Positions 3,570 through 17,331 of a stretch of 32,000 bases of DNA are shown here, piece after piece. Position 1 is the first letter of the stretch; each line of letters begins with the position of its first letter. This DNA comes from Candidatus Electronema aureum (lineage in GTDB: Bacteria > Desulfobacterota > Desulfobulbia > Desulfobulbales > Desulfobulbaceae). A program made the position numbers and the translations under genes. The stretch is from the NCBI GenBank assembly GCA_004284765.1, contig NQJD01000006.1, positions 60,001-92,000 of the forward strand, written 5' to 3'. A model generated the notes under the pieces. It worked only from the letters and a program-made list of their open reading frames with translations, was not told the origin of the DNA and ran no database searches.

Positions 3570-4211
3570 ATGATGCAACAGCCATTTGATCGCCGCAAGC
3601 ATGTCTATCACAACGATGCATTTGTTGAGCTGGTGAAAGATGCTGTGCGTTTCTTCAACGGAACACCTGTTCACAGCCTTCCTCCGCCAGAACATTTTTC
3701 AGGAACAGGTGTGTATGCGCTTTATTACACAGGAACTCATCCTCTCTATGCCAGATATGCGGAACTGAACCGCCTGTCTTATGATTTCCCGGTGTACGTT
3801 GGCAAAGCAGTGCCCAAAGGCTGGCGGCAGTCCAGAACGTCTGATGATGCTGCAAATCAATCCAACGAGCTGTTCAGCAGGCTTCGAGAACACAGCAGAA
3901 GCATCGAAGCTGCGGCTGGACTGCATCTGCATGATTTCTCCTGCCGCTTTGTCATCTTTGAGCGGGAAGGTTCAGATATGATTGGGGTCATTGAGGCCGC
4001 ATTGATCAAGCTGAATCGTCCGTTATGGAATTCCTGTCTTGACGGCTTTGGCAATCACGATCCCGGCAAAGGACGGTATGAGCAGGCGAGGTCTGATTGG
4101 GACATCATTCATCCGGGAAGAAACTGGGCTGACCGTTTGAAAGCCAGTTCACACAGTAGAGATTCCATTCTTGCCAAGATTGCAGCGCATCTGCAAGCGT
4201 TGAAGAAATAA
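3570..4211 (+). CDS. Eco29kI-family GIY-YIG type II restriction endonuclease
   Basis: 213 aa. GIY-YIG-like GVYALYY...VYVGKA. Conserved family segments as I remember them: LREHSRSIEAA, LWNSCLDGFGNHDPGKGR, SDWDIIHPGRNWA. Stop overlaps the methyltransferase start (TAATG). The apparent lack of CCGCGG in the window is consistent with this specificity. Confidence 0.8.
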   Translation: MMQQPFDRRKHVYHNDAFVELVKDAVRFFNGTPVHSLPPPEHFSGTGVYALYYTGTHPLYARYAELNRLSYDFPVYVGKAVPKGWRQSRTSDDAANQSNELFSRLREHSRSIEAAAGLHLHDFSCRFVIFEREGSDMIGVIEAALIKLNRPLWNSCLDGFGNHDPGKGRYEQARSDWDIIHPGRNWADRLKASSHSRDSILAKIAAHLQALKK

Positions 4212-5407
4212 TGAAGTGTCTTGAAATTTTCTCAGGAGCAGGCGGGCTTGCCAAAGGATTGGAAAATGCCGGATTTGAACACGCCTCTTTTGTTGAAATC
4301 AACAGAGACGCTTGCGCCACCCTCAGAAAGAATTTTCTTCCCGCTCTTGTTTACGAAGGAGATATTGCAACCTTTAATCTTTCTGCGCTTGGAACGGTTG
4401 ACATCGTTGCAGGAGGGCCACCCTGTCAGCCTTTTTCGTTAGGCGGCAGACATAAGGCGCAGCAGGACAGCCGAGATTTGTTTCCGCACGCTGTTCGCTG
4501 CATTGAGAGATTGCAGCCAAAGGCGTTCCTGTTTGAGAATGTGAAAGGGTTGCTCCGGCCTTCCTTTGCAAAATATTTTGAATACATTCTTCTGCGGCTT
4601 GCATATCCGTATTGCAGCATGTTGAAGGGTGAATATTGGCCGGAGCATCTTGCGCGGCTGCAACAAATAACGCCAAAAAGTTATGACGGCATCAGGTATG
4701 ATGTGCAATTTAAGCTGCTCAATGCCGCTGATTTTGGTGTGCCACAGAAACGCGAACGAGTGCTTGTTGTCGGCATCCGTTCAGACCTCAGCATCAAATG
4801 GAAATTTCCTGAGCCAACGCATTCAGAAGACAGGCTTCATTGGGAAAAATATGTGACCGGCGCATATTGGCAGCGGCATGGGATGGCAAAACAGAACAAT
4901 GATGCGCTGCAACGTTTGCTCCGGCAGCGATATGGTCTGTTTGAGCCGAAAGGACAGCCTTGGCAAACTGTGCGGGATGCGCTGAAGAATGTCCCTTGGC
5001 CGCAGGATGCGCACGGCATCTCTGATCATATTTTCAAAGACGGGGCAAGAACATATCCCGGTCACACCGGCAGTGAAATTGATCAGCCAGCAAAGACTCT
5101 TAAAGCGGGCGGGCACGGCGTTCCGGGCGGCGAAAACATGATCCGCTATGAAAATGGCTCTGTGCGGTATTTCACCGTTTATGAGGCCAAGCTGCTGCAA
5201 ACGTTCCCGGAAGATTTTGCAATCGTCGGCGCATGGGGAGAGGCGATGCGGCAGCTTGGCAATGCGGTTCCGGTTGCGCTTGCCGAGTTGTTTGGCAAAA
5301 AATTATTTGCTCTGCTTTCTCACAAGGAAAATTTGATGAAATGCAACGAAGTCAGGGTACATCCTGTAACTTCCCGCAGCCAGGTTAGTTCTGTCTTGAC
5401 AGCATGA
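4211..5407 (+). CDS. DNA (cytosine-5)-methyltransferase
   Basis: 398 aa with canonical C5-MTase motifs: I EIFSGAGGL, IV GGPPCQPFS, VI ENVKGL, VIII QKRERV, X GNAVPV. The last ~13 codons (5370-5407) read into the right-hand direct repeat, so the C-terminal tail is probably an incidental extension. Confidence 0.92.
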   Translation: MKCLEIFSGAGGLAKGLENAGFEHASFVEINRDACATLRKNFLPALVYEGDIATFNLSALGTVDIVAGGPPCQPFSLGGRHKAQQDSRDLFPHAVRCIERLQPKAFLFENVKGLLRPSFAKYFEYILLRLAYPYCSMLKGEYWPEHLARLQQITPKSYDGIRYDVQFKLLNAADFGVPQKRERVLVVGIRSDLSIKWKFPEPTHSEDRLHWEKYVTGAYWQRHGMAKQNNDALQRLLRQRYGLFEPKGQPWQTVRDALKNVPWPQDAHGISDHIFKDGARTYPGHTGSEIDQPAKTLKAGGHGVPGGENMIRYENGSVRYFTVYEAKLLQTFPEDFAIVGAWGEAMRQLGNAVPVALAELFGKKLFALLSHKENLMKCNEVRVHPVTSRSQVSSVLTA

Positions 5408-5463
5408 TGATCGAGCTGCAATCCGGCATGAATGGCCTTGGCGACGTTGAAGTTGAGGTGAGA
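5370..5463 (+). repeat. right copy of the direct repeat flanking the R-M cassette (94 bp)
   Basis: See the left copy. It has the same CTGTCTTGACAG palindrome (5391-5402) and the same GAGGTGAGA end, but no substantial ORF follows. Confidence 0.85.
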
Positions 5464-5485
5464 AGTGGAAAAGAAGCTAAACCAA

Positions 5486-5684
5486 GTAGGTCTGCTTGAG
5501 TGTAACGAAAGCGGACGGCTTTGACTTAAATATGAGTTACGCAGTTGGATTTATAACCCGTTGATTTTGTTCAACTGGCGATTTGTGTCACTGAAATTTA
5601 ACGTGCTGTAATAATTGAACTTCAGGTTTCAACTGCGTAACTCCTATTAAATTGTCTGATTTCGTTATACTCAATCAGACCTAC
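5486..5684. repeat. ~200-bp imperfect palindrome (MITE-like element or long hairpin)
   Basis: GTAGGTCTGCTTGAGTGTAACGAAAGCGGAC (5486-5516) is the near reverse complement of GTCTGATTTCGTTATACTCAATCAGACCTAC (5654-5684). The inner arms AATATGAGTTACGCAGTTGGA (5529-5549) and TCAACTGCGTAACTCCTATT (5629-5648) also pair. The sequence is AT-rich. No transposase is present. Confidence 0.6.
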
Positions 5685-5716
5685 GTAAACACGTAACTTA
5701 AAAGGAATCGAGTGAT

Positions 5717-6166
5717 ATGAACAACGATATGCTTCAAAAGAATTTCAAAGGGGGAGATGCTGTTGAAGTATACGCAAATCCTGCCGCTTATACTTTACTT
5801 GAGATGGACAAAAAAGTCAGCAATGAAATGACTTGGATTAAGGGCAGATATGTTTCAAAAGTTGGCACGAAACAGCATTGTGTGGATATTTCCCCAGGAT
5901 ATAGCGATACTTTCAGTGATGAATGTATTCGTCCGTTTGAAACATCATTGACTGAACAAAAAATCGCTTTATCCAGTGAATTGAATTTCATCAAGATGGA
6001 ATTCAATAGTTTTATAAATAGTTTTGCAGCTCGACAGAGGGCGAGAGGCAGGTCTCCAAAACCTGAAACTGAAGTAGAGAAAGATATCACCAATCTTGCC
6101 AAGATTACTCTTAAACTGGTGCAATATATAGAAAAATCTCAAGGGAAAAGCGACGCCAAATCTTAG
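5717..6166 (+). CDS. hypothetical protein (orphan, AT-rich codon usage)
   Basis: 149-aa ORF preceded by AAAGGAA 10 nt upstream. The lines I counted are about 33-40% GC, against about 55-65% in neighbouring genes. I recognise no family. The C-terminal half looks helical and has a basic patch, RQRARGRSPKPE. Confidence 0.55.
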   Translation: MNNDMLQKNFKGGDAVEVYANPAAYTLLEMDKKVSNEMTWIKGRYVSKVGTKQHCVDISPGYSDTFSDECIRPFETSLTEQKIALSSELNFIKMEFNSFINSFAARQRARGRSPKPETEVEKDITNLAKITLKLVQYIEKSQGKSDAKS

Positions 6167-6216
6167 TAGTTCGGCGGCCAACAACGGCCTATCTGCCACT
6201 TACATCGCCCCAAAGT

Positions 6217-6489
6217 CAATTGGAATTGCCCCGATGCACACTGGAATCACCCCGTTTCCGATTGGAATTGACACGTTTTCAACTGGAATCAAGGCGGTTC
6301 CAATCGAAAACGGCCCGATGTCAATTGGAAACGAGGCAATTCCGGTTGACTTTGCACCAATTCCAACAGGAATCAGGACGATTCCAATCGAAAACGGCCT
6401 GATGTCAATTGGAAACAGATCAATTCCAACAGGAATCACGGCAATTCCAGTGTGCATCAGGACGTTTCCGGCGTGCTCTGCAACAGGAA
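6217..6489. repeat. array of 13 tandem 21-bp repeats (consensus about CAAyTGGAATCAnGrCGrTTC) with GGAAT/ATTCC half-sites
   Basis: Cutting the sequence every 21 nt from 6217 gives 13 aligned units: caattggaattgccccgatgc, acactggaatcaccccgtttc, cgattggaattgacacgtttt, caactggaatcaaggcggttc, caatcgaaaacggcccgatgt, caattggaaacgaggcaattc, cggttgactttgcaccaattc, caacaggaatcaggacgattc, caatcgaaaacggcctgatgt, caattggaaacagatcaattc, caacaggaatcacggcaattc, cagtgtgcatcaggacgtttc, cggcgtgctctgcaacaggaa. Units 5-6 and 9-10 are 37/42 identical, giving an 84-bp higher-order period. Confidence 0.9.
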
Positions 6490-6582
6490 ATGCTGTATAT
6501 TTACTGCGTAAAATTTGCGGCGGAGGACATCTCGGCCACTGCCGGACAAACAACACAGCGTCCCAGACAAGGAGAAAGCATC

Positions 6583-7188
6583 ATGCGTTTCCCGAAGACA
6601 GAATCGGAGATCATGGCCTTGGTGCAGAACATCATCAGCGGGCTTGCGAACAATCCGAACTTTCCCTCGCCGCCGGTCTCCCCAGCCGCTTTGCAGGCCC
6701 GGCTGGATGCGGCAGTCAATTCCAGCAATAATCAAATTATGGCGCAGGCGGCGGCGAAACAGGCCACTGACACCAAGCAGGCTGACTTTGACGCGCTGAT
6801 TGCGGACGTAAAAACTGTGCTCCATTATGCCGAAGATGCGGTGCATGACGATGATGCCAAATTGTCGGCATTGGGCTGGGGCGGCAAGTCTGCGCCGCAC
6901 GCCTTGCAGGCACCCGGCCAGCCGAGGCTGCTTGAAGTGCTGCGGCAGGGCGCGGGCCAGCTGACGCTGGATTGGAAAAAGCCTGCGGACGGCGGCGCAC
7001 CGGCTTCCTACAAGATCGAACGGCGCGACTTGACCGACGGCGGCGCGTGGACGCTGGCCGGCATTGCAATCGAAACCGAAGTCACGCTCAATAATCAGAA
7101 GCGCGGCAAGGAATTGGAATACCGCGTCATTGCGGTCAACAAGGCGGGCGAAGGAGAGCCGGGCAACACGGTGACGGCATTGCTGTAA
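6583..7188 (+). CDS. small fibronectin type III domain protein (helical N-terminal domain plus C-terminal FN3)
   Basis: I place the start at ATG 6583, which has AAGGAGA 7 nt upstream. The ORF-track start at 6409 lies inside the repeat array. The C-terminal ~95 aa (PGQPRLLEV...LTLDWKKPADGGAPASYKIERR...WTL...EYRVIAVNKAGEGEPGN) is a typical FN3 pattern. The stop lies 3 nt before murD. Confidence 0.75.
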   Translation: MRFPKTESEIMALVQNIISGLANNPNFPSPPVSPAALQARLDAAVNSSNNQIMAQAAAKQATDTKQADFDALIADVKTVLHYAEDAVHDDDAKLSALGWGGKSAPHALQAPGQPRLLEVLRQGAGQLTLDWKKPADGGAPASYKIERRDLTDGGAWTLAGIAIETEVTLNNQKRGKELEYRVIAVNKAGEGEPGNTVTALL

Positions 7189-7191
7189 AGG

Positions 7192-8595
7192 ATGCGTAAA
7201 AACATGATTGAACTGCGATCAAACACCAAAGCCATCGCCGTTGGCCTCGGCAAATCCGGGCTAGCGGCGGTGCGATATTTGCACAGCCTTGGGCTGAAAA
7301 CCGCTGCCTCGGAATATAAAAAGCAGATCACGGCGGAAGAGCAGGCGGTGCTGGCGGAGTGCGGCGCGGACTTGGAACTCGGCGGCCACACGCCAGAATT
7401 CTTCGCCGATGCCGACTTGATCGTGGTCAGTCCCGGAGTGCCGACCAACCTGCCGGTGTTGAACGCCGCTCGCAGCCGGAGCGTGCCAGTGGTCGGCGAA
7501 TTGGCCTTGGCTGCCGGGCGCATTCCGGTGCCGGTGATTGCTGTGACCGGTTCCAACGGCAAAACCACTGTCACCAGCTTGATCGGCCATCTGCTGCGAA
7601 GTTCCGGCAAGCAAGCCTTTGTCGGCGGCAACATCGGCACGCCGGTTTTGGAATATCTGCTGGAGCCAGGCGAAACCGAGGCGGCGGTGCTGGAGCTGTC
7701 CAGTTTTCAGTTGGACATGGCGGGCGATTTCCGGCCTGACATCGCCCTGCTGCTCAATCTTTCGCCGGATCACATTGACCGGCACGGCAGTTTTGAAAAT
7801 TACGCCGAAGCCAAGCGGCAGATATTCGTCCGACAGGGTAGTGCGGACATTGCCATCCTCGGTGCAGATGACCCGATGGTTGCCGCCAAACCGGTGACAA
7901 CCGCAGGGACAGTGCTGCATTTCGGCACGCAGCCGGGCTGCCGGGCCAAAGTTGAAGGGCAACAAGTGCGGCTGGAACCCGGTTTCGGTGCGGACGGCGC
8001 GGTGGAGAGTTACGATTTATCCGCCACCCGGCTCAGTTCGTTAGTCAATGCCTACAACGCGGCAGCGGCAATTTTGGCGGCGCGGGCTTTCGGCTGCTCT
8101 GCCGATGGCATCCAAGCGGGATTGGCCGATTATCAGCCGCCCATGCACCGGATGACTCCTGCCGGGGAAATCAACGGGGTTTGTTTCATCAACGATTCTA
8201 AAGCGACCAACATCGGCGCAGTGCAGGCGGCCTTGGCTGGCTTCAAGAAAGATGTGGTGCTGATTGCAGGCGGGCGAAACAAGGGCGGTGATTTCACCGA
8301 GCTAATTCCGGCTTTTCGCCAGCATGTCCGACAGGTAGTGCTGATCGGCGAGGCCGGGCCGGATTTGGCTGTCGCTGCTGAAGCTGCCGGAATCGGGCAT
8401 CAGTTCGCAGACGACATGCGCGATGCGGTGCGCAAAGGATTTGCATTGGCCAAGCCGGGCGAAACCGTGCTGCTTGCCCCGGCCTGCGCCAGCTTTGACA
8501 TGTTCGACAACTATGAGCACCGGGGAAGGGAGTTTAGCAGGTGGGTAGGGGAGTTGGCAGGAACAAACAGCCAAGACACGGCCTTAAACAGATAG
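7192..8595 (+). CDS. murD: UDP-N-acetylmuramoylalanine--D-glutamate ligase
   Basis: 467 aa. N-terminal GLGKSG Rossmann motif, Mur-ligase P-loop VTGSNGKTTV, and its position in the dcw cluster. The start could be ATG 7192 or ATG 7204. Confidence 0.9.
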   Translation: MRKNMIELRSNTKAIAVGLGKSGLAAVRYLHSLGLKTAASEYKKQITAEEQAVLAECGADLELGGHTPEFFADADLIVVSPGVPTNLPVLNAARSRSVPVVGELALAAGRIPVPVIAVTGSNGKTTVTSLIGHLLRSSGKQAFVGGNIGTPVLEYLLEPGETEAAVLELSSFQLDMAGDFRPDIALLLNLSPDHIDRHGSFENYAEAKRQIFVRQGSADIAILGADDPMVAAKPVTTAGTVLHFGTQPGCRAKVEGQQVRLEPGFGADGAVESYDLSATRLSSLVNAYNAAAAILAARAFGCSADGIQAGLADYQPPMHRMTPAGEINGVCFINDSKATNIGAVQAALAGFKKDVVLIAGGRNKGGDFTELIPAFRQHVRQVVLIGEAGPDLAVAAEAAGIGHQFADDMRDAVRKGFALAKPGETVLLAPACASFDMFDNYEHRGREFSRWVGELAGTNSQDTALNR

Positions 8596-8608
8596 GCGAA
8601 ATACGTCC

Positions 8609-9697
8609 ATGCGCATCATCATCACTGGCGGCGGAACTGGTGGCCACCTCTTTCCTGGCATCGCCTTGGCAGCAGCATTGCGGCGGCGGTTTCCCGGCTG
8701 CGAGATTATGTTCATTGGCACCAAGCGGCAGCTTGACCGCGACGCGCTGGCTGGGCTGGATTTCCGGCAGGAATCTATCACCTGCATGGGACTCAAGGGC
8801 ATGGGCTTGACGCATCGCATCAGGAGCCTCGCCAGCCTGCCGAAAGCCGTGCTGGAAGCCCGCCACCTTATCAAACAATTTCAGCCGGAGCTGGTATTCG
8901 GTGTAGGTGGCTACGTCACCGGGCCGGTGCTTTTGGCTGCTCGGTTGCTCGGCGTGCCTGCCTGCATTCATGAGCAGAACGCCATTCCCGGTCTCGCCAA
9001 TCGCCTGACCGCCCGTTTTGTCAATAAAGTCTTTGTCTCTATTCCCGGTGATTATCCTTTCCCGCTGAAAAAAACCGTAGTTTCCGGCAATCCTGTTCGA
9101 GCGGAAATCTTAGCCGCTGCGGAGCAGAAGCAGAGCCAGCAAACAGCCGATCAGCCTTTCACGCTCTTGGTCATGGGCGGCAGTCTTGGCGCACACCGGA
9201 TTAATATGCTGATGCTGGAGGCAATGGCGATTATCAAAAAACAGCAACCCGTTCCCTTTCGCCTGATTCACCAGACCGGCGCAGCCGATGCCGAGCAGGT
9301 GCGGACAGGCTATGCCGCAGCAGATATCGAAGCCGAGGTTGTGCCCTTTATCAAGGATATGGCTGCGGTCTATGCTCAAGCTGATTTGGCCGTTGCGCGG
9401 GCTGGGGCGACTTCGCTGGCCGAGTTAGCCGTGATGGGTCTGCCTGCTCTGCTCATTCCTTATCCACACGCGGCGGACGATCATCAGGCCACCAATGCGA
9501 GTTATTATGTTGCAGGCGGCGGCGCGAGGATGTATAGGGAAGAGGAGCTTAATGCCGGGCGGCTGGCAGCGGCGATCATGAAGCTAGCAGGAAATGCGAA
9601 CAAGCTGGCGCAAATGGGCGCGGCAATGCGGCAGATGGCCGTACCGGATGCGGCGGAACGGATTTTGGCTGATTGCATGGAATTGATCGAAAAATAA
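8609..9697 (+). CDS. murG: undecaprenyldiphospho-muramoylpentapeptide beta-N-acetylglucosaminyltransferase
   Basis: 362 aa. GGGTGGHLFPGIALA N-terminal motif and GT28 architecture. Sits 13 nt after the murD stop. Confidence 0.92.
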   Translation: MRIIITGGGTGGHLFPGIALAAALRRRFPGCEIMFIGTKRQLDRDALAGLDFRQESITCMGLKGMGLTHRIRSLASLPKAVLEARHLIKQFQPELVFGVGGYVTGPVLLAARLLGVPACIHEQNAIPGLANRLTARFVNKVFVSIPGDYPFPLKKTVVSGNPVRAEILAAAEQKQSQQTADQPFTLLVMGGSLGAHRINMLMLEAMAIIKKQQPVPFRLIHQTGAADAEQVRTGYAAADIEAEVVPFIKDMAAVYAQADLAVARAGATSLAELAVMGLPALLIPYPHAADDHQATNASYYVAGGGARMYREEELNAGRLAAAIMKLAGNANKLAQMGAAMRQMAVPDAAERILADCMELIEK

Positions 9698-11106
9698 TGT
9701 ACAAAAAAAATAAACATATTCATTTTGTTGGTATTGGCGGCATCGGCATGTCTGGCATCGCCGAACTACTGCTTTATCTCGGCTATAAAGTCAGCGGCTC
9801 CGACCTCCGCAGCTCGGATACCACCCGCCGCCTGCAAAAAATTGGTGCGATCATTCATCAGGGCCATCAGGCGGATTGGGTCGCAGGAGCGGACGTGGTG
9901 GTGGTTTCCTCGGCAGTGGCAGCAGACAACCCCGAAGTTTTAGCTGCCCGCGAACAGCAGATTCCGGTGATTCAGCGGGCCGAAATGCTGGCTGAGTTGA
10001 TGCGCCTGAAAAAATACGGCATCGCAGTGGCGGGCAGCCACGGCAAAACCTCTACGTCCTCGCTGATAGCGGCGGTGCTGCACGAGGCAGGTCTTGATCC
10101 GACCGTAGCCGTAGGCGGCAAAGTTGATTGTTTCGGCGGCAGCAACGCCCATCTCGGCGAAGGCGAATTTTTGGTGGCTGAGGCCGATGAGAGCGACGGC
10201 TCCTTTCTTAAACTTTGGCCGGTGATTGAGGTCGTGACCAATATTGATTTGGAGCATGTGGATTATTATCGTGATCTCCATCACATCAAAGAGACCTTCC
10301 TCGAATTCATCAGCCGCATTCCTTTTTATGGCGCGGTGGTGCTGTGCTTGGATGATGCCAATATCGCCAGCCTGCTGCCGCAAATCCAGCGGCGCAAAAT
10401 TACCTATGGACTGACCGAGCAGGCTGATCTTCATGCGGCAAAAATCGAAAAGCAGGGTTTGAGCAGCGAGTTTTCCGTCTATTTTCGCGGCAAAGAGCTG
10501 GGCCGGGTGCGGCGCAATTCGCCAGGGCGGCACGTCATCCTCAACACCCTTGCCGCCATTGCCGTGGCCTTAGAATTGGAGATTGAATTTCCGGTCATCG
10601 CTCATGCTTTGGAGAAATTCGAGGGCGTGCAGCGGCGATTACAAATCAAGGGTGAAAAACAGGGCATTCTGGTGGTGGATGACTACGGCCATCACCCCAC
10701 GGAAATCCGCGCCACGCTCGATGCCATCCGCGACGGCTGGCCTGACCGTCGTCTGGTGGTGGTTTTCCAGCCGCACCGTTACACTCGCACCAAGGGGCTG
10801 TTTAACGAATTCGCCACCGCCTTTTACCGTGCTGACGTGCTGATTCTGACCGATATTTATGCGGCCAGCGAGCAGCCCATCGAGGGCGTGACCAGCGCAG
10901 CTTTGCTGGAGGCGATCAAGCAGCACGGTCAACGGCAGGCCCATCATCACGCCAATTTAGCCACGCTTCCGGCTGATCTTTTTGATTTCATCGAGCCGGG
11001 CGATTTGGTGCTGACCTTGGGCGCGGGCAGTATCGTTCAAATCGGCGAGCAGTTGCTTACTTTGCTGGAACAGAAAGGAATTTCCTCTGTCGAGCTAAAA
11101 TCATGA
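9697..11106 (+). CDS. murC: UDP-N-acetylmuramate--L-alanine ligase
   Basis: HFVGIGGIGMSGIAELL and AGSHGKTSTSSL motifs. I prefer ATG 9697 (TAATG overlap with the murG stop, giving MYKKNKHIHFVGIGG) to the ORF-track start at 9673. Confidence 0.92.
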   Translation: MYKKNKHIHFVGIGGIGMSGIAELLLYLGYKVSGSDLRSSDTTRRLQKIGAIIHQGHQADWVAGADVVVVSSAVAADNPEVLAAREQQIPVIQRAEMLAELMRLKKYGIAVAGSHGKTSTSSLIAAVLHEAGLDPTVAVGGKVDCFGGSNAHLGEGEFLVAEADESDGSFLKLWPVIEVVTNIDLEHVDYYRDLHHIKETFLEFISRIPFYGAVVLCLDDANIASLLPQIQRRKITYGLTEQADLHAAKIEKQGLSSEFSVYFRGKELGRVRRNSPGRHVILNTLAAIAVALELEIEFPVIAHALEKFEGVQRRLQIKGEKQGILVVDDYGHHPTEIRATLDAIRDGWPDRRLVVVFQPHRYTRTKGLFNEFATAFYRADVLILTDIYAASEQPIEGVTSAALLEAIKQHGQRQAHHHANLATLPADLFDFIEPGDLVLTLGAGSIVQIGEQLLTLLEQKGISSVELKS

Positions 11107-12044
11107 ACGAGCGGCAGCTCGGACGACTAGCGGCAGCTGGCTTGGCTGAACTTCGCTTCGACGCGCCGATGGCTGAATACTGCACTTTGCGAGCAGGCGG
11201 CAAGGTAGCCGCGCTGATCGAGGTGGCGAATCTGGAAGAATTGCGCCGTGTTCTCGCTTTGCTGGCTGAGGAAGAAATTAAATTTCTTATTGTCGGGCGG
11301 GGTTCCAATCTGCTCGTGGTGGACAGCGGTTATTCTGGAGCAATCATCCGACTCAAAGGCGAGTTCAACACGATAGCCCTGCAAGAGTGCAACGAAATTG
11401 CAACGATAATCAAAGTTGGAGCAGGTTGCGCCTTGGGTAAATTGGTCTCTTGGTGCAGCGGGCAGGGCTTGGCTGGGCTGGAATTTTTAGTTGGCATACC
11501 CGGCTCAGTCGGTGGTGCGGTGCGAATGAACGCCGGTGCTTGGGGCCAAGAAATCGGCGCACGATTGGAAGCAATTGAGCTGATAGACAGGCAAGGCAAG
11601 TTACGCCAGATTCCGTTCTCCGGCCTCCGTCTGAGCTATCGCACCCTTGACCTTGCTGAGGGAAGAATCGACAATACGATCATCACTGCTGCGTTATTTA
11701 GCTTGAAGACTGATCGCGAGGAAGATATCCGCAGCCGTTGCGCCGCGTATCTGGAACGGCGAAAAGGCAAGCAGCCCGCTGGCGTGGCTTCCGCAGGCTC
11801 GTTTTTCAAAAATCCACCCGACGATTTTGCAGGGCGACTGATTGAAGTTGCTGGATTGAAAGGTACGAGCTGTGGCGCAGCAATGATTTCGCCGGTGCAT
11901 GGAAATTTTCTCGTCAACACCGGCGGCGCGTCAGCAACGGATATTTTAACCCTCATGGAGCAAGTGCAGGCGGCGGTTTTTGCCCAGTTTGCGATCAAGT
12001 TGGAACCGGAAGTGCGGATCATCCAAGAGAATGATTCCCCGTGA
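11103..12044 (+). CDS. murB: UDP-N-acetylenolpyruvoylglucosamine reductase
   Basis: 313 aa. FAD-binding PCMH-type N-terminus (LRAGG...GRGSNLLV) and C-terminal MurB domain. ATGA overlap with murC. Confidence 0.9.
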   Translation: MNERQLGRLAAAGLAELRFDAPMAEYCTLRAGGKVAALIEVANLEELRRVLALLAEEEIKFLIVGRGSNLLVVDSGYSGAIIRLKGEFNTIALQECNEIATIIKVGAGCALGKLVSWCSGQGLAGLEFLVGIPGSVGGAVRMNAGAWGQEIGARLEAIELIDRQGKLRQIPFSGLRLSYRTLDLAEGRIDNTIITAALFSLKTDREEDIRSRCAAYLERRKGKQPAGVASAGSFFKNPPDDFAGRLIEVAGLKGTSCGAAMISPVHGNFLVNTGGASATDILTLMEQVQAAVFAQFAIKLEPEVRIIQENDSP

Positions 12045-12994
12045 TGTACTCGCAAAGTCCGTTAGTTGGCTCGAAGAGGAAACGATACCGGCAGCACCGG
12101 GCAGGACGTTCCAGCACCTTCCGCAGCTTCCGCGCTGCCATTGCGGGTTCAAGATGGTCTGCGCCGTCGGTCAATAACGGCCCATACCGAAAAGATGCAG
12201 CCACCAGCAGTCAAGAAGCGGCCCAACTTCTGCATCTGTCCAAGACAGCTCTGCTGGCCGGGCTGCTGGCGGTACTGCTGGTTGTGACCGGGCTACGTGG
12301 CTATCAGGCGTTAGAGAATTCTGGTGCTTTTCAGGTGCGACAAATCACGGTGCAAGGCTGCCGCACCGTGCGTGAAGAACAAGTGCTGGCCTTGGCTGAC
12401 ATTCGGCAGGGAATGCCGTTGCTTGGCTTCAATTTACCGGAAACAGAACAGCGCATCCGCAGCCATCCTTGGATTGATCAAGTCAGTATCCGGCGTTCGT
12501 GGCCGGACAGCCTCCACATTCAGGTGCAGGAACGGCGACCTTTGGCTCTGGTCAATATAGAAAAAAGCAGCAGCCAAGGTTTATATTATATTGATCAAGG
12601 CGGCACGATTTTCGCTCCGGTTGAATCTGGTCAAGATATTGATTTTCCAGTGATCACTGGTGTAGATTTGCCCGGAGAGTCGAGAGGATTCAATCTTTCT
12701 GAAGGTGCGACAGCAGACGCAGTGCAATTTCTCCGTTTGGCCGCTCAAGGTAATCCCATTTTGCCCATGCAGGCTTTGTCAGAAATTCAAATAAGCCGGG
12801 ACAAGGGAATTATTGTATATCTTGCGGAACACCCCTTTCCTATTTATATAGGATATGGTAAGATTAAAACCAGATATTATCAGCTCGTCAGACTACTTGA
12901 GCGGTTGTATCGCAAAGAGAAGATTGAATATATCAGAGAAATTCGCATGGATTATCAGACTGACCGCATTCTGGTGGCCAGTCTGAAACCGTAG
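12041..12994 (+). CDS. ftsQ: cell division protein FtsQ
   Basis: 317 aa. Basic N-terminal tail, one TM helix (LLAGLLAVLLVVTGL), POTRA-like VRQITVQGCRTVREEQVL, and its position between murB and ftsA. Start overlaps the murB stop. Confidence 0.8.
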   Translation: MMYSQSPLVGSKRKRYRQHRAGRSSTFRSFRAAIAGSRWSAPSVNNGPYRKDAATSSQEAAQLLHLSKTALLAGLLAVLLVVTGLRGYQALENSGAFQVRQITVQGCRTVREEQVLALADIRQGMPLLGFNLPETEQRIRSHPWIDQVSIRRSWPDSLHIQVQERRPLALVNIEKSSSQGLYYIDQGGTIFAPVESGQDIDFPVITGVDLPGESRGFNLSEGATADAVQFLRLAAQGNPILPMQALSEIQISRDKGIIVYLAEHPFPIYIGYGKIKTRYYQLVRLLERLYRKEKIEYIREIRMDYQTDRILVASLKP

Positions 12995-13006
12995 GCGGAG
13001 TGTGTA

Positions 13007-14281
13007 ATGGAAGAGCTGGATATAAAAGAAGTGATGCCTGAGGAGACCGGAGAAATTAAGCCGGTTCGTGAGGCCGGTTCGGGTGAGCTGGTTGCCGGGT
13101 TAGATATTGGTACCACTAAAATTTGCGCGGTGATTGGCGAAGTCTTTCCTGACGGCTGTCTGAACATCATCGGCGTGGGTACCGCAGCCTCGTCGGGCAT
13201 GAAAAAAGGCGTGGTGGTCAACATTGAATCGACGGTTAGAGCTATCCGCCAAGCCATCGACAGTGCCTCAGACATGGCGGGTTGCGATATCGAATCCGTG
13301 TATGTGGGCATTGCTGGTACGCATGTCAAGGGCTTTAACTCCCCTGGTATCATTGCCATTAATAACCAGCAAATCCGCCAGCGGGAAATCGACGCGGTCA
13401 TTCAAGCCGCGCAAACCGTCAAGGTCTCGGACAACCAGCAGATCATTCACGTTTTGCCGCAGGAATACATGGTCGATGATCACACCGGTATTCAGAATCC
13501 GCTCGGTATGACTGGAGTGCGTTTAGCTACCAATGTGCATATTGTCACTGCTGATATCACTTCGCTACACAATCTGATCACCAGCTGCAACCGGGCGGGG
13601 CTGAACGTAACCGAAGTAGTGCTGGAGTCAGTGGCTTCGTCTAAAGCTGTGCTGACCCCGGACGAAATGGAACTGGGTGTGGCTCTTTTGGATATTGGCG
13701 GTGGCACCAGCGACTTAGCTGTGTTCTGCAACGGCACGATCAAATATACGTGGGAGTTGGCCTTAGGCGGCAACAATTTGACCAATGATCTCTCGGTTGG
13801 TCTGCGTACTCCGCTCCAAGAGGCGGAAATGCTTAAATATCGCTATGGGGCCGCAGTTTCTTCGTTGATTAAGGAAAATCACATTATTGAAGTGCCGACG
13901 GTGGGCGACCGCAAGGCTCGCAAGGTTTCCCAAAAAGTGCTGGTGGAAATCTTAGAAGCTCGGATTGAGGAAATTTTACAGGTAGTGAACAAAAAAATTT
14001 GTGGCTCAGGCTACCGAAATCGGATCAACGCGGGCATGGTTATCACCGGCGGCACTGCCCTGTTAGCCAATATTGTTGATCTGGCCGAACAAATTTTTGA
14101 CATGCCAGTGCGGATTAGCTGCCCGCAGGGTGTGGGCGGCAGAGTAGAGGATATTGAATCACCTCGGTGTACTACAGCGGTCGGATTAGTGCTGTACGGT
14201 AGCACAGCTCGCAGCATTCAGCCTGCGGAAAGCGGAAACGTAGTCAGTAAACTGAAAAATTTTCTGAAAAATATTATTTAG
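13007..14281 (+). CDS. ftsA: cell division protein FtsA
   Basis: 424 aa. Actin-like ATPase motifs GLDIGTTKICAVIGE and LDIGGGTSDLAV. Confidence 0.92.
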   Translation: MEELDIKEVMPEETGEIKPVREAGSGELVAGLDIGTTKICAVIGEVFPDGCLNIIGVGTAASSGMKKGVVVNIESTVRAIRQAIDSASDMAGCDIESVYVGIAGTHVKGFNSPGIIAINNQQIRQREIDAVIQAAQTVKVSDNQQIIHVLPQEYMVDDHTGIQNPLGMTGVRLATNVHIVTADITSLHNLITSCNRAGLNVTEVVLESVASSKAVLTPDEMELGVALLDIGGGTSDLAVFCNGTIKYTWELALGGNNLTNDLSVGLRTPLQEAEMLKYRYGAAVSSLIKENHIIEVPTVGDRKARKVSQKVLVEILEARIEEILQVVNKKICGSGYRNRINAGMVITGGTALLANIVDLAEQIFDMPVRISCPQGVGGRVEDIESPRCTTAVGLVLYGSTARSIQPAESGNVVSKLKNFLKNII

Positions 14282-14297
14282 AAAATCTGAAAAAGAA

Positions 14298-14326
14298 TTG
14301 AGCGGCAAGCGGAGCAGCGGTACAAT
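14298..14326 (+). promoter_or_regulatory. candidate sigma70-type promoter for ftsZ
   Basis: TTGAGC (14298-14303), a 17-nt spacer, then TACAAT (14321-14326), in the ftsA-ftsZ spacer about 40 nt upstream of the ftsZ start. This is a sequence match only. Confidence 0.35.
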
Positions 14327-14367
14327 GAATTTCATTGATGCAGCGGAAAAGGCTTGAGGGGAATGGC

Positions 14368-15567
14368 ATGTCATATCGAATGGCAGAAGAAAAGGCAGTA
14401 GCGACGATCAAAGTGATCGGGGTCGGCGGCGGCGGCGGTAATGCCATCAACACGATGGTGGAACACCGGTTAGCCGGAGTACAGTTCATTGTTGCCAATA
14501 CGGACATGCAGGCTCTGGAAAAATCAAGGGCGGACATCCGTATTCAGCTGGGGCCAACCGTGACCAAAGGCATGGGCGCAGGTGCTGATCCTGAGATGGG
14601 CAGGAGGGCTGCCGAAGAAAGTTTGGAAGACCTGAGCAACGCCATCGAGGATGCAGATATGGTCTTTGTCACCGCTGGTCTTGGTGGTGGCACAGGCACT
14701 GGAGCTGCACCGGTAATTGCTGGACTTGCCAAGGGAAAAGGCGCGTTGACCGTTGCAGTTGTCACCAAGCCCTTTTATTTTGAAGCCAAGAAGCGGATGC
14801 GCAACGCTGAAGCGGGCTGGGAAGAGCTGAAGAAGAACGCAGACACTATCATCACCGTGCCGAACGACCGACTGCTCGGCCTGATGCAGAAAAACTCCAC
14901 GATGGTGGAGATGATGAAGATGGTCGATGATGTCCTTCTGCAAGCGGTCAAGGGCATCACCGACCTGATTAATCTGCCTGGTCATATCAACGTTGACTTT
15001 GCCGACCTCAAAACGGTCATGAAGGAAGTCGGCCCGGCAATCATGGGTTCTGGCTCCGCTTCCGGCGAAAATCGTGCTGCTGAGGCCGCTAAACGGGCCA
15101 TTGACAACCAGCTACTGGAAGACGTGGGCATCGACGGGGCACTCGGTATTCTGATCAACATCTCCGCCACCAGTACCATGACCATGAACGAGTTCATGGA
15201 GGCTTCTGCCTTAATTCAGGATAAGGCGCACGAAGATGCCAATATCATCATCGGTGCGCTTTTCGACGAAAACATGGGCGACGAGCTGCGAGTGACGGTG
15301 ATCGCTACCGGCATTTCTCGGCGCGAGGAAGGCGAGACCATCTCCGAGTTAGATGCAGTGGGGCGAGCTGGACGTAAAAACCTCAAACAGCAACCAGCAG
15401 CAGAGCCAGAGCGCATTCTCCAAGAGCCGGAACATCGAGCTGTGAGCTTTGCTCGGCCTAATCCCGTGCCGAAAGGTATCCGGCCTATGCCCACTCCCGT
15501 CTTTGACGATCAAAACGATCTGGCTGAATGGGACGAACCGGCCTACATTCGCAAAAAATCCAACTGA
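14368..15567 (+). CDS. ftsZ: cell division protein FtsZ
   Basis: Tubulin signature [11 protein letters not shown] and N-terminal [18 protein letters not shown] prefer ATG 14368, preceded by GAGGGG with a 6-nt spacer, to the ORF-track start at 14335. Confidence 0.95.
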
Positions 15568-15597: not shown

Positions 15598-17331
15598 TTG
15601 CATCCCCTGCTGGCAGCGGAGACTGGCACAGTCCGCAAAAAATGGAAGGGCCGCCTGCCTGCGGCCCTGCTTTATCCCAACACCTATCCTTTAGCAGTCT
15701 CCAATCTCGGCTTTCAGCTCGTTTATCGCTTGCTGAACCGCTTTGATCATCTTGTCTGCGAACGCTTTGTCTATCCGCAGGGAGAGGAGCCGTTCCGCTC
15801 GCTGGAATCCGACCGTCTTCTCTCCGATTTTCCCCTGATTTTTGGCTCAATCAGCTTTGAGCAGGATTACCCTCGCTTGGCTGCCATGCTCGCTGCTGGA
15901 GGAATTGCGCCTTATGCTGCCGACCGCAGCAACTTGGTTACTACCGGAAACCCACTCGTCATTTTGGGTGGAGTTGGAGTATTCATGAATCCAGAACCGC
16001 TGGCTCGCTTTGCCGATTTAATGGTGATCGGTGAGGCTGAAGTGGTTTTGCCGCAGCTGCTGACTGAACTCGCTACGACCAGCAACCGACAGGAATTGCT
16101 GCACCGTATTGGCGCAACGATTCCCGGTTGTTATGTGCCAAGTGGCTACAGTTTTCGTTATGATAACGACGACGGGCGGGTGTTGGATATCGCTGTTGAT
16201 TCTGGCTTACCCCAGCGGGTGCGCCGAGCCGTGCTGCAAACCACTGACCGGGCCGCGCATTCTGAGCTGCTCTCACCAGAAGCTGAACTGGGCATGTATA
16301 TGACCGAGCTGGGCCGTGGCTGTAGCCGTGGTTGCCGCTTCTGCGCCGCTGGATTCATCTATCGTCCGCCCCGGCTTTGGGATGCGGATGCGGTTTTAGC
16401 TGGTTTAGCCGAGCGGCCTGATGGCGTTGACCGTGCTGGTTTGCTCGGCATGGAAATGGCTGACTCGGCGACGCTGGATCAGATCGCCGCCTTCTTGACC
16501 GAAACCGGTTGTGCCCTCTCCTTTTCTTCGCTGCGTGCTGACCGAATTTCCCCGCGCCTGCTGGAGCTGCTCTCTCGCTCTCAGTTGAAATCAGCGGCTA
16601 TTGCGCCAGACGGCTGTTCGCAACGGCTGCGCCAAGTGATCAACAAAGGGCTGGCCGAAGAAGATTTGCTTGCGGCGGCGGCGGCCTTGGCTGAGGCGGG
16701 CATTTTCACTCTCAAGTTATATGTAATGATTGGCCTGCCCACAGAAACCCAGCAAGACCTTGACGAGCTGATCGACTTAGTGCGCAAAGTCCGGGATTGC
16801 ATCTTGCCCATCGGCAGAAAGAAAGGACGGGTCTGCGAGATCGTCCTCTCGGTCAATAGCTTTGTGCCGAAGCCGTGGACACCTTTCCAATATCTCTCCT
16901 TTGGCGGCTTGAACGATGATGAGGTGTTACGCGACCAAAGCGAAAAAAACGCCCTACTGCGGCTGAATAACACCATCAGGCAGCTCAAAACCGCGCTCGC
17001 AGGGATAGATAATCTCCAGTTCAAAGCTGATCGGCCTGAAACTGTGCTACCACAAGCGGTCTTTGCCCGTGCTGATCGCCGCATCGCTCCGGTGCTTTTG
17101 GATATCGGTACGGGTAAATCTTCTTTCAAACAGGCGATGAAGGCGCATGGCCTGACCGCTTGGCAATACGCTATCCGGCCCAAAACGGCAGACGAGCTGT
17201 TTTGCTGGGAAGTGCTTGATCAAGGGATCAAGAAGGACTATCTGCACCGCGAGCTGGAAAAGGCTCTGCGGGCTGAAGCAACTCCACCCTGCGATACATC
17301 ACGCTGCCGCCGTTGCGGGGTGTGTCAATAG
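15598..17331 (+). CDS. B12-binding-domain radical SAM protein
   Basis: 577 aa with a TTG start. CxxxCxxC cluster motif in GRGCSRGCRFCAAG. The N-terminal part resembles a cobalamin-binding-like domain. The C-terminus has an extra Cys cluster, CDTSRCRRCGVC. Confidence 0.8.
   Translation: MHPLLAAETGTVRKKWKGRLPAALLYPNTYPLAVSNLGFQLVYRLLNRFDHLVCERFVYPQGEEPFRSLESDRLLSDFPLIFGSISFEQDYPRLAAMLAAGGIAPYAADRSNLVTTGNPLVILGGVGVFMNPEPLARFADLMVIGEAEVVLPQLLTELATTSNRQELLHRIGATIPGCYVPSGYSFRYDNDDGRVLDIAVDSGLPQRVRRAVLQTTDRAAHSELLSPEAELGMYMTELGRGCSRGCRFCAAGFIYRPPRLWDADAVLAGLAERPDGVDRAGLLGMEMADSATLDQIAAFLTETGCALSFSSLRADRISPRLLELLSRSQLKSAAIAPDGCSQRLRQVINKGLAEEDLLAAAAALAEAGIFTLKLYVMIGLPTETQQDLDELIDLVRKVRDCILPIGRKKGRVCEIVLSVNSFVPKPWTPFQYLSFGGLNDDEVLRDQSEKNALLRLNNTIRQLKTALAGIDNLQFKADRPETVLPQAVFARADRRIAPVLLDIGTGKSSFKQAMKAHGLTAWQYAIRPKTADELFCWEVLDQGIKKDYLHRELEKALRAEATPPCDTSRCRRCGVCQ

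Follow-up and report, generated by a model that had tools for sequence, protein, structure and literature searches.

We describe a tandem array of 21-bp repeats that accompanies the genes of one small protein family across distant bacterial phyla. The array was noticed in a stretch of 32,000 nucleotides from the cable bacterium Candidatus Electronema aureum (contig NQJD01000006.1, positions 60,001 to 92,000; we call the whole stretch the window, and we number it from its first letter). It occupies 6196-6468, and it lies upstream of a gene for a 201-aa FN3-family protein (6583-7188, forward strand), which is its conserved partner. The array belongs to the FN3 gene, and not to the division and cell-wall (dcw) cluster that follows it in this genome. 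Array and FN3 gene form a self-contained two-part module, in which the array is a non-coding cis element.

This module has apparently not been described before, and its conservation across phyla, in multiple copies, and at the level of geometry is apparently a new result. Full-text literature searches found no description of the array or of the FN3 family, and no described family matched in Rfam, Pfam, PADLOC, PHROGs, or NCBIfam. A first interpretation made from the letters alone (the sequence-only reading) had likewise known of no described motif that matches, and it had proposed a platform with multiple protein-binding sites of the centromere, origin, or operator kind. The non-coding, phased, dyad-symmetric character of the array and its position upstream of the FN3 gene agree with a platform; the assignment to a dcw operator, a centromere, or an origin is not supported.

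Unit structure and limits of the array

The array consists of 13 head-to-tail units, degenerate at the edges, with an internal duplication of 84 bp (4 units). In the register of a hairpin, the consensus unit is TTGGAATC-N5-GATTCCAA, and the 13 units at 6196-6468 match the consensus at 12, 19, 16, 15, 15, 15, 16, 13, 15, 14, 15, 15, and 12 of 21 positions. The identity at lag 21 is 0.58 across 252 bp of array, when the window-wide mean at that lag is 0.277 (sd 0.039) and the runner-up position in the 32 kb reaches 0.377. When the array is shuffled 2000 times, no lag gives more than 0.374. The periodicity exceeds chance by far. Tandem Repeats Finder calls the array at periods 42 and 84.

The sequence-only reading had set the limits at 6217-6489, as 13 consecutive 21-mers without a register slip, and cut in that way the unit is of the type CAAyTGGAATC-nnGnC-GATTC. 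The count and the period stand, but the last of those units (6469-6489) matches the consensus at 5 of 21 positions and is no recognisable unit; in the alignment of orthologues it is part of a conserved right border, CAGTGTGCATCAGG.CGTTTCCGGCGTG... On the other side, 6196-6216 agrees with the consensus at 12 of 21 positions. The limits are therefore better set to 6196-6468. The phasing of the half-sites is as had been reported: within the array, all nine GGAA are at unit phase 6, and all eight TTCC are at unit phase 19. One inverted site, GGAATC-N5-GATTCC, is found at 6369-6385 as GGAATCAGGACGATTCC; the other, GGAAT-N7-ATTCC, is present as GGAATCACGGCAATTCC and spans 6432-6448, not 6432-6447. 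The higher-order repeat of 84 bp (6301-6342 vs. 6385-6426, 37/42 identical), the AT-rich elements TATATT (6496-6501) and TAAAAT (6509-6514), and a distance of about 95 nt to the FN3 gene (the start is 94 nt from 6489) were all recovered.

The array sequence is the same in three independent assemblies of the strain, which rules out a contingency locus or hypervariable switch. Polar growth of the kind seen in arrays of clustered regularly interspaced short palindromic repeats (CRISPR) was also considered and rejected, as there is no gradient in unit decay along the array.

Arrays accompany FN3 genes across phyla

We surveyed FN3-family loci using one genome per GTDB species, which resulted in 76 loci (labelled L###). 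At E<1e-5, we found over 460 relatives of the FN3 protein, all of them about 201 aa long and 55-97% identical. The loci come from Ca. Electronema (the closest, 85%), Ca. Electrothrix, other Desulfobulbaceae, Planctomycetota, Hydrogenedentota, Sumerlaeota, and a Thiotrichales metagenome-assembled genome; others have partial matches only. The only Pfam domain in the protein is fn3. An acidic helical N-terminal domain (residues 1-100) precedes a titin-like FN3 domain (residues 110-200), and a confident AlphaFold 2 model of the former shows a short helix packed onto a single 53-residue helix. The N-terminal domain is found in this architecture only (359 clusters at 50% identity), and the protein has no Rep-like match.

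An array with a 21-bp period is present within 700 bp upstream of the start in 35 of the 49 full-length FN3 loci. These arrays come from cable bacteria, Planctomycetota, Hydrogenedentota, Sumerlaeota, and Thiotrichales, at least five phyla. They have about 7-18 recognisable units, typically about 12, and they end 6-350 nt before the ATG of the FN3 gene, at about 40 nt or less in many arrays. The 14 remaining full-length loci include three with 20-bp-period arrays, two with an 8/16-bp periodicity, and three with a weak 21-bp periodicity, and at least one of the 14 (L048) has too short an upstream sequence. Also among the 14 are L049, in which the array precedes a frameshifted upstream FN3 copy; L030 and L051, in which it is about 1.1 kb upstream; and L032 (1286-1607), in which, as in the metagenome locus L196 (11600-11912), it is downstream of the FN3 gene by 270-690 nt. 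The L196 array, 690 nt past the FN3 gene, precedes an unrelated gene of more than 605 aa. Arrays also stand before internally deleted or truncated FN3 genes (L063, L065, L072, L079).

Several genomes have 2-5 copies of the FN3 family, with unit sequences that differ between the copies, and the loci sit on long chromosomal contigs. The family has no match in 72,556 plasmids, 50,697 phages, and IMG/VR, and its rate of birth and death is high. As a separate observation, many FN3 genes have suffered a frameshift or an internal deletion, or persist only as C-terminal remnants, beside a surviving array (L049 3120-3738, L063 3918-4255, L065, L072, L078, L079).

The neighbours of the FN3 genes are otherwise unrelated, and we counted 81 Pfam families across 70 downstream proteins. 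The recurrent ones are a LamG_3 protein, in about ten loci of planctomycete type, and DNA methyltransferases, in six. The module appears in polysaccharide clusters and among toxin-antitoxin and restriction-modification genes, and on one contig it is between a protein with an eCIS_core domain (PF13699) and a Fic protein. The window has one array, and across about 0.5 Mb of related loci arrays are found only beside FN3 genes. In a metagenome search for three GGCATT at 21-bp spacing, the matches listed are mostly unrelated repeats, most of them with at least one open frame, and one FN3-type array (L196) is among them. The 83 unrelated arrays of 21-bp period from this search are our control set.

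We also note that in loci of planctomycete and Hydrogenedentota type, the FN3 gene is followed by a LamG_3 protein of 375 aa (L027 4694-6320, L031 1634-3274, L085 8695-10312), often with a small gene for a 23S-rRNA-IVP/Avd-like four-helix bundle or a PDDEXK_3 gene in between. A link of the Avd-like neighbours to diversity-generating retroelements was rejected: they occur in three loci only, and they are members of the broad 23S-rRNA-IVP family.

Phase and symmetry outlast the sequence

The consensus units differ completely between lineages, and also between paralogues of one genome. Examples are TTGGAATC..GATTCCAA, TTTAAATC..GATTTAAA, CTGCGAATGAGGCATTCGCAG, ..CAAGCTTG.., and GATGAGATCTCATC. 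All arrays fit one register, with a weak common skeleton, C-t-T-g-a-A-A-y-G-n-G-g-C-r-T-T-t-c-A-a-G, and this shared skeleton suggests a common descent of the arrays.

The phase is strict. A register shift between the two halves of the array is absent in 34 of 35 arrays, and among seven orthologues, the insertions and deletions (indels) in the array are of 21, 63, or 84 bp only, when the adjacent 93-nt spacer has indels of 1-2 nt. The unit is dyad symmetric, with z>2 in 33/35 arrays and a median of 4.0 relative to column-shuffled matrices; the median z of the 83 control arrays is 0.4. Core positions of the unit are better conserved between orthologues than spacer positions (Spearman 0.71), and the overall divergence of the array between orthologues is close to that of four-fold degenerate sites.

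The symmetry also shows as covariation between arrays. We took the consensus unit of each array as one sequence, and we compared the nine dyad-related position pairs to 500 shuffles. Standard pairs amount to 74.4%, vs. 55.0 +/- 1.8% when shuffled, and all nine position pairs covary. There are 68 double-sided changes (29 in shuffles) and 25 extra pair types (19 in shuffles). For each of these three measures, none of the 500 shuffles exceeds the observed value, and slid controls of the pairing give 28-37%. Stems as different as CTTACAATG/CATTGTAAG, TCTCATCCG/CAGATGAGA, and TTGGAATC/GATTCCAA share the same positions in the unit.

Two other candidate properties were rejected. Folding of the whole array back into one long hairpin has no preferred centre. 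Intrinsic curvature is not shared, as the array of the window (0.87) and the arrays of AAGCTT type are not predicted to be strongly curved. Arrays of the GAAAyGAGGCrTTTC type (L020, L023, L027, L034, L035, L038) are predicted to be strongly curved, because their A3 and T3 tracts are one helical turn apart; their ratio of end-to-end to contour length is 0.18-0.34, and all these curvature values are exploratory, computed with Bolshoy wedge angles. On the sense strand of the FN3 gene, the centre of the unit is G-rich (CGAGGCA) in 26 arrays, and it is C-rich in the dcw group of the cable bacteria, to which the window belongs. When the arrays of the cable-bacteria lineage are fitted to those of other lineages, as a check for an inversion of the array, the forward and the reverse-complement fits are equal.

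A proposed platform on duplex DNA

The reading that we favour, tentatively and with somewhat less than even confidence, is that the array is a platform on duplex DNA, with dyad sites on one face for a symmetric protein, and that it controls the promoter of the FN3 gene. About 12 dyad-symmetric sites at a spacing of two helical turns would all be on one face of the helix. A symmetric protein, dimeric or higher, could assemble on them in a cooperative manner, over the 250-300 bp that directly precede the FN3 start, and the assembly would set the transcription of the FN3 gene and, in this genome, probably also that of murD and the gapless division genes downstream. What we infer here is that a protein on duplex DNA reads the symmetry, that it binds cooperatively, and that the outcome is control of the promoter. 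A reading at the level of DNA explains the strict phase, the intolerance to small indels, the independent drift of the half-sites within an array, and the position on the promoter side of the gene, where the array ends 6-200 nt ahead of the start codon. The symmetry is in the consensus of the array and not in single units, and half-sites of a protein site that drift independently would give this pattern.

Several observations weigh against this reading, and we gather them here. Unrelated units stand beside FN3 proteins that are 75-78% identical (L029 vs. L038, for example), and therefore a sequence-specific binder that co-evolves with its sites is hard to picture. Nor could one generic host factor read all the unit variants. 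Complementarity that is independent of the sequence is a classical sign of base pairing, and not of a protein site. The arrays also have a polarity that would fit transcription through them: the FN3-sense strand is purine-rich in 30/35 arrays (p=1.6e-5), and tetramers that resemble Shine-Dalgarno sequences (GGAG, GAGG, AGGA, AAGG) are four times commoner on it. In many loci, the room between array and ribosome-binding site is too small for a promoter, and no consensus promoter was found in the four arrays scanned. The arrays have no DNA-binding protein linked to them among their neighbours. The N-terminal domain of the FN3 protein has no recognisable DNA-binding fold, and the family is acidic throughout (median isoelectric point 5.0, and 4.7 for the N-terminal domain).

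The FN3 protein itself is unlikely to bind the array. As a specific binder it is disfavoured by its acidic charge and by the turnover of the arrays at 75-78% protein identity. The sequence-only reading had named two candidates among the neighbouring proteins, this one and the 149-aa open reading frame (ORF) at 5717-6166, and neither is retained; the latter is present in this strain only. Tandem sigma-70 promoters or a cluster of terminators were also rejected as a description of the array, with no consensus sites in four arrays.

Possible hairpins in a single strand

Covariation of this kind naturally raises the question of whether the array acts instead as a single-stranded nucleic acid, in the 5′ leader of the FN3 mRNA, in an antisense RNA, or as extruded DNA hairpins. 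Each 21-nt unit would form a stem-loop with a stem of 7-9 bp and a loop of 3-7 nt, and the row of hairpins would control mRNA stability or translation, or bind a structure-specific factor. We consider this rather unlikely, and it is the alternative that survives best. It accounts for the strong covariation between arrays at all nine dyad pairs and for the very different stems at the same unit positions, and it makes a co-evolving protein unnecessary. The sense-strand polarity is in its favour, as is the fact that many arrays reach to about 40 nt from the start codon, up to the ribosome-binding site. On either strand, the arrays fold locally with a somewhat lower energy than their shuffles do (median z about -2.2 and -2.5).

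But the folding energy has no consistent strand preference, and the asymmetry between G-U and A-C mismatches tracks the base composition of the lineage and not one strand. Within arrays, the pairing signal is weak. Single units pair at 45-63% Watson-Crick per position. In the lineage of the window, no compensation is seen in single units: pairing within arrays is 71.1% vs. 70.4% when shuffled, with z of -1.2 and -3.0 in the two registers. Across all arrays, the excess of compensation is small. Concerted evolution weakens this within-array test, since what has mutated recently in one unit is only noise about the consensus under selection. The two most regular arrays (L044, and L049, which was not scored) have little or no dyad symmetry in the unit. 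And an exact 21-nt phase with zero small indels is needless for independent hairpins. There are no terminator-like hairpins, and no Rfam family matches; the only two Rfam hits, to microRNA models, are below threshold (24-25 bits vs. gathering scores of 79-83).

A possible satellite without function

A third possibility is that the array has no function. It would be an old tandem repeat that stood beside an ancestral FN3 gene, was inherited with it, and has been homogenised by unequal crossing-over, with a symmetry that comes from a palindromic founder unit and mutational bias. We find this quite improbable. The single register and the shared skeleton, which suggest a single origin, fit with it, and so do the divergence between orthologous arrays near that of four-fold degenerate sites, the decay of many modules, and the whole-unit indels and internal 84-bp duplication typical of unequal crossing-over. 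However, drift of the half-sites without selection should erase the symmetry, and 33/35 arrays retain it despite the turnover. Small indels are absent although substitutions are plentiful, and core positions are preferentially conserved. The array has stayed with the gene while the two were transferred into at least five phyla and repeatedly formed paralogues, and the number of units varies little (about 7-18). With symmetry, phase, and unit number all outlasting a complete turnover of the sequence, a purely neutral satellite is unlikely.

What the geometry would mean

Beyond the question of mechanism, it is possible, although we would put it as doubtful, that the array and the acidic helical/FN3 protein are a kind of bacterial module not recognised so far, with a cis element that is defined by geometry and evolves by concerted compensation, and which has spread between phyla and multiplied within genomes. 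If so, this would be a new class of scaffold read by its structure, either nucleoprotein or RNA, and not a variant of an iteron or an operator; a platform for the assembly or positioning of FN3 proteins and a new form of expression control are two examples of what it might be.

If functional, the array is a cis element conserved by its architecture (period, phase, symmetry, and unit number) despite full turnover of its sequence. Conservation of the architecture alone escapes sequence similarity searches, and this is probably why annotation pipelines have recorded the arrays as 'hypothetical proteins'. The arrays are tied to one small protein family across distant phyla, and the electrically conductive cable bacteria are among the carriers. 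In the lineage of the window, the module heads the run of genes from murD to ftsZ, and it may feed into the control of cell wall and division in a filamentous multicellular bacterium. The natural variants, at least 35 of them with differing stems and one geometry, are a ready mutational series to distinguish a protein on DNA from a hairpin.

Comparison with known repeat systems

It is very improbable that the array is a member of a named system, that is, a MraZ-type dcw operator, a plasmid-type centromere (parC/ParR, omega), or an iteron origin. The anatomy is alike, in that sites spaced two helical turns apart stand in tandem just before an operon, and in this genome that operon continues into murD...ftsZ. 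Beyond the phased repeats themselves, we find none of the defining features of these systems. The arrays accompany FN3 genes outside dcw clusters, into unrelated contexts, which speaks against the dcw operator that had been proposed. The analogies to centromeres and origins are not supported either: no ParA, ParM, ParR, omega, or Rep gene adjoins any array, and the plasmid, phage, and viral collections given above have no match to the family. The 2-5 copies per genome with differing unit sequences are a further difference. By analogy, the anatomy of the array appears closest to iterons and to repeat centromeres and operators, and its evolutionary behaviour to palindromes of the repetitive extragenic palindromic (REP) kind or to RNA helices.

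Iterons are tandem sites of about 19-22 bp in helical phase, with 3-7 units, an element-specific sequence, and a shared architecture, such as those of R6K, pPS10, and RK2; the dyad-symmetric iterons at the origin of phage lambda are bound by the O protein. Like the array, they are in helical phase, may have dyad symmetry in each site, adjoin the gene that they serve, and have a sequence specific to the element. Unlike iterons, which have an initiator of Rep or O type as a neighbour, the array is next to an acidic helical/FN3 protein. It also has about 12 units and not 3-7, and it lies on chromosomes in multiple copies and does not occur in the plasmid and phage collections.

Centromeres of type II/Ib (R1 parC-ParR, pSK41 parC, and the omega heptads of pSM19035) have units of 7, 10, 11, or 20 bp. 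They share with the array short repeats directly upstream of an operon, and they are cooperative platforms on one face of the DNA that autoregulate the promoter. The array differs in its 21-bp units and in its neighbours, which are unrelated between loci and among which no partition NTPase or ribbon-helix-helix adaptor was found. The MraZ operator consists of short direct repeats with a spacing of about 10 bp, located before mraZ where the dcw cluster begins, whereas the array has a dyad-symmetric unit of 21 bp, precedes FN3-murD and not mraZ, and has homologues outside dcw clusters.

CRISPR arrays have repeats of 23-55 bp, unique spacers of similar length, and cas genes nearby. The units described here abut one another, only 3-5 central positions vary, and there are no cas genes among the neighbours. 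REP elements and the bacterial interspersed mosaic elements (BIMEs) made from them are 20-40 bp long, variably spaced, found at tens to hundreds of dispersed places, and tied to REP-associated tyrosine transposases (RAYTs). In common with the array, they are non-coding and imperfectly palindromic, they keep the palindrome although the sequence itself changes from lineage to lineage, and they can cluster inside operons. The array differs in being one strictly phased tandem array per FN3 gene, as judged from the window and from related loci that total about 0.5 Mb. REP palindromes are summarised in PMC3733652.

Palindromic amphipathic repeat coding elements (PARCELs) are coding repeats inside ORFs, with a 25-residue motif of about 75 bp (PMC2996958). 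They resemble the array as dyad-symmetric tandem repeats that read alike on both strands, and in their horizontal spread and patchy distribution (PMC2996958). The array differs from PARCELs by its 21-bp units, the lack of a consistently open frame, and its position outside the gene. Finally, the sponge RNAs of the Csr/Rsm systems (CsrB, RsmZ) are rows of short hairpins with a spacing of about 20 nt and purine-rich loops. Some units of the window, GGAATC-AGGAC-GATTCC, would similarly place AGGA in the loop. Unlike in the sponges, the GGA motif is absent from the orthologues of Electrothrix type (TTTAAATC...GATTTAAA) and from most arrays, there is no Rfam match, and the support for hairpins within arrays is weak.

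The array is non-coding

It is scarcely credible that the array encodes a heptad-repeat protein, in the forward frame 6234-6731 or in an ORF of 85-118 aa on the reverse strand. Seven codons are 21 bp, several frames are open across the array of the window as had been noted (6234-6731 forward, 6200-6556 reverse), and six homologous 'hypothetical proteins' are annotated from related arrays. But a forward frame is open in only 10/35 arrays and a reverse frame in 16/35, and 14/35 are closed in all six. In the orthologues of Electrothrix type (L011-L015), nearly all of the 30 frames have 2-14 stops; the exceptions are two open forward frames in L014 and one forward frame with a single stop in L015. 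In a subfamily the units are 20 bp long, which is incompatible with a fixed peptide repeat. Neither the unit sequence nor, as a consequence, the peptide is conserved between arrays, and the same GI..IP peptide appears on both strands merely because the unit is a palindrome. No Pfam family matches. The heptad-repeat protein was rejected on the closed frames and the 20-bp periods, and these same two facts bear out the earlier preference for a palindromic repeat over a gene. The array is non-coding.

Both ORFs across the array of the window are spurious. The forward one (6234-6731), with the pattern GIxxIPx, crosses the array and overlaps the FN3 gene out of frame; it is unconserved and has no family match. 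The reverse one (6200-6556), of which gene callers report 6200-6457 as an 85-aa 'hypothetical protein', also crosses the array and is unconserved, and related arrays have many stops on its strand. In the databases we observe 'hypothetical proteins' of 78-144 aa derived from arrays, and FN3 ORFs extended upstream to 232-284 aa (P0001-P0007, P0127). Such artefacts arise because the palindromic unit is poor in stops.

Gene neighborhood in the window

Between the array and the FN3 start, the spacer (6490-6582, forward strand) contains conserved TGTATATTT and GTAAAAT blocks and an AAGGAG ribosome-binding site at 6569-6574. Judged by their sequence, the conserved blocks are a possible -10 region; a scan for consensus promoters found no sigma-70 match in the spacer. 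On the other side of the FN3 gene, murD (7192-8595, forward strand) starts 3 nt past the FN3 stop, and the two are probably co-transcribed in this genome. The adjacency of FN3 and murD is limited to the cable-bacteria lineage, and murD is no part of the module elsewhere. The order of genes after FN3 is murD, murG, murC, murB, ftsQ, ftsA, and ftsZ.

A variable low-GC island (3570-6166, forward strand) abuts the left edge of the array and is outside the module. It includes, all on the forward strand, an Eco29kI-type endonuclease (3570-4211), a C5 DNA methyltransferase (4211-5407), and the orphan, strain-specific ORF of 149 aa (5717-6166). The first two, at 3570-5407, are a complete restriction-modification pair of Eco29kI type immediately left of the array. 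In L006, an Eco57I-type gene and a PIN toxin occupy the position of the island. On its left side, the array seems to border a hot spot where defence genes insert. Related C5 methyltransferases are close to arrays in L009, L011, L013, L033, and L034.

Also in L006, a diverged 65-nt copy of the 5′ end of murD (ATGATTGAACTTAAACCC...) is found at 8135-8200 on the reverse strand, with the Eco57I-type gene on one side and the array on the other; that locus also has the intact murD, after the FN3 gene. The relic is a scar of the recombination that delivered array, FN3, and murD to the lineage. It lies directly against the array on the left, which puts the left end of the transferred segment at the array itself.

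Upstream of the island there are menaquinone genes and not mraY, and therefore the dcw cluster is split in this genome. The division and cell-wall run at 7192-15567 is without ftsW between murD and murG, and without ddl. L006 has a gene of 411 aa between murD and murG, without a Pfam match. Directly after ftsZ, at 15598-17331, there is a 577-aa radical-SAM protein (Radical_SAM_N2 and Radical_SAM domains), and the same is found in L001.

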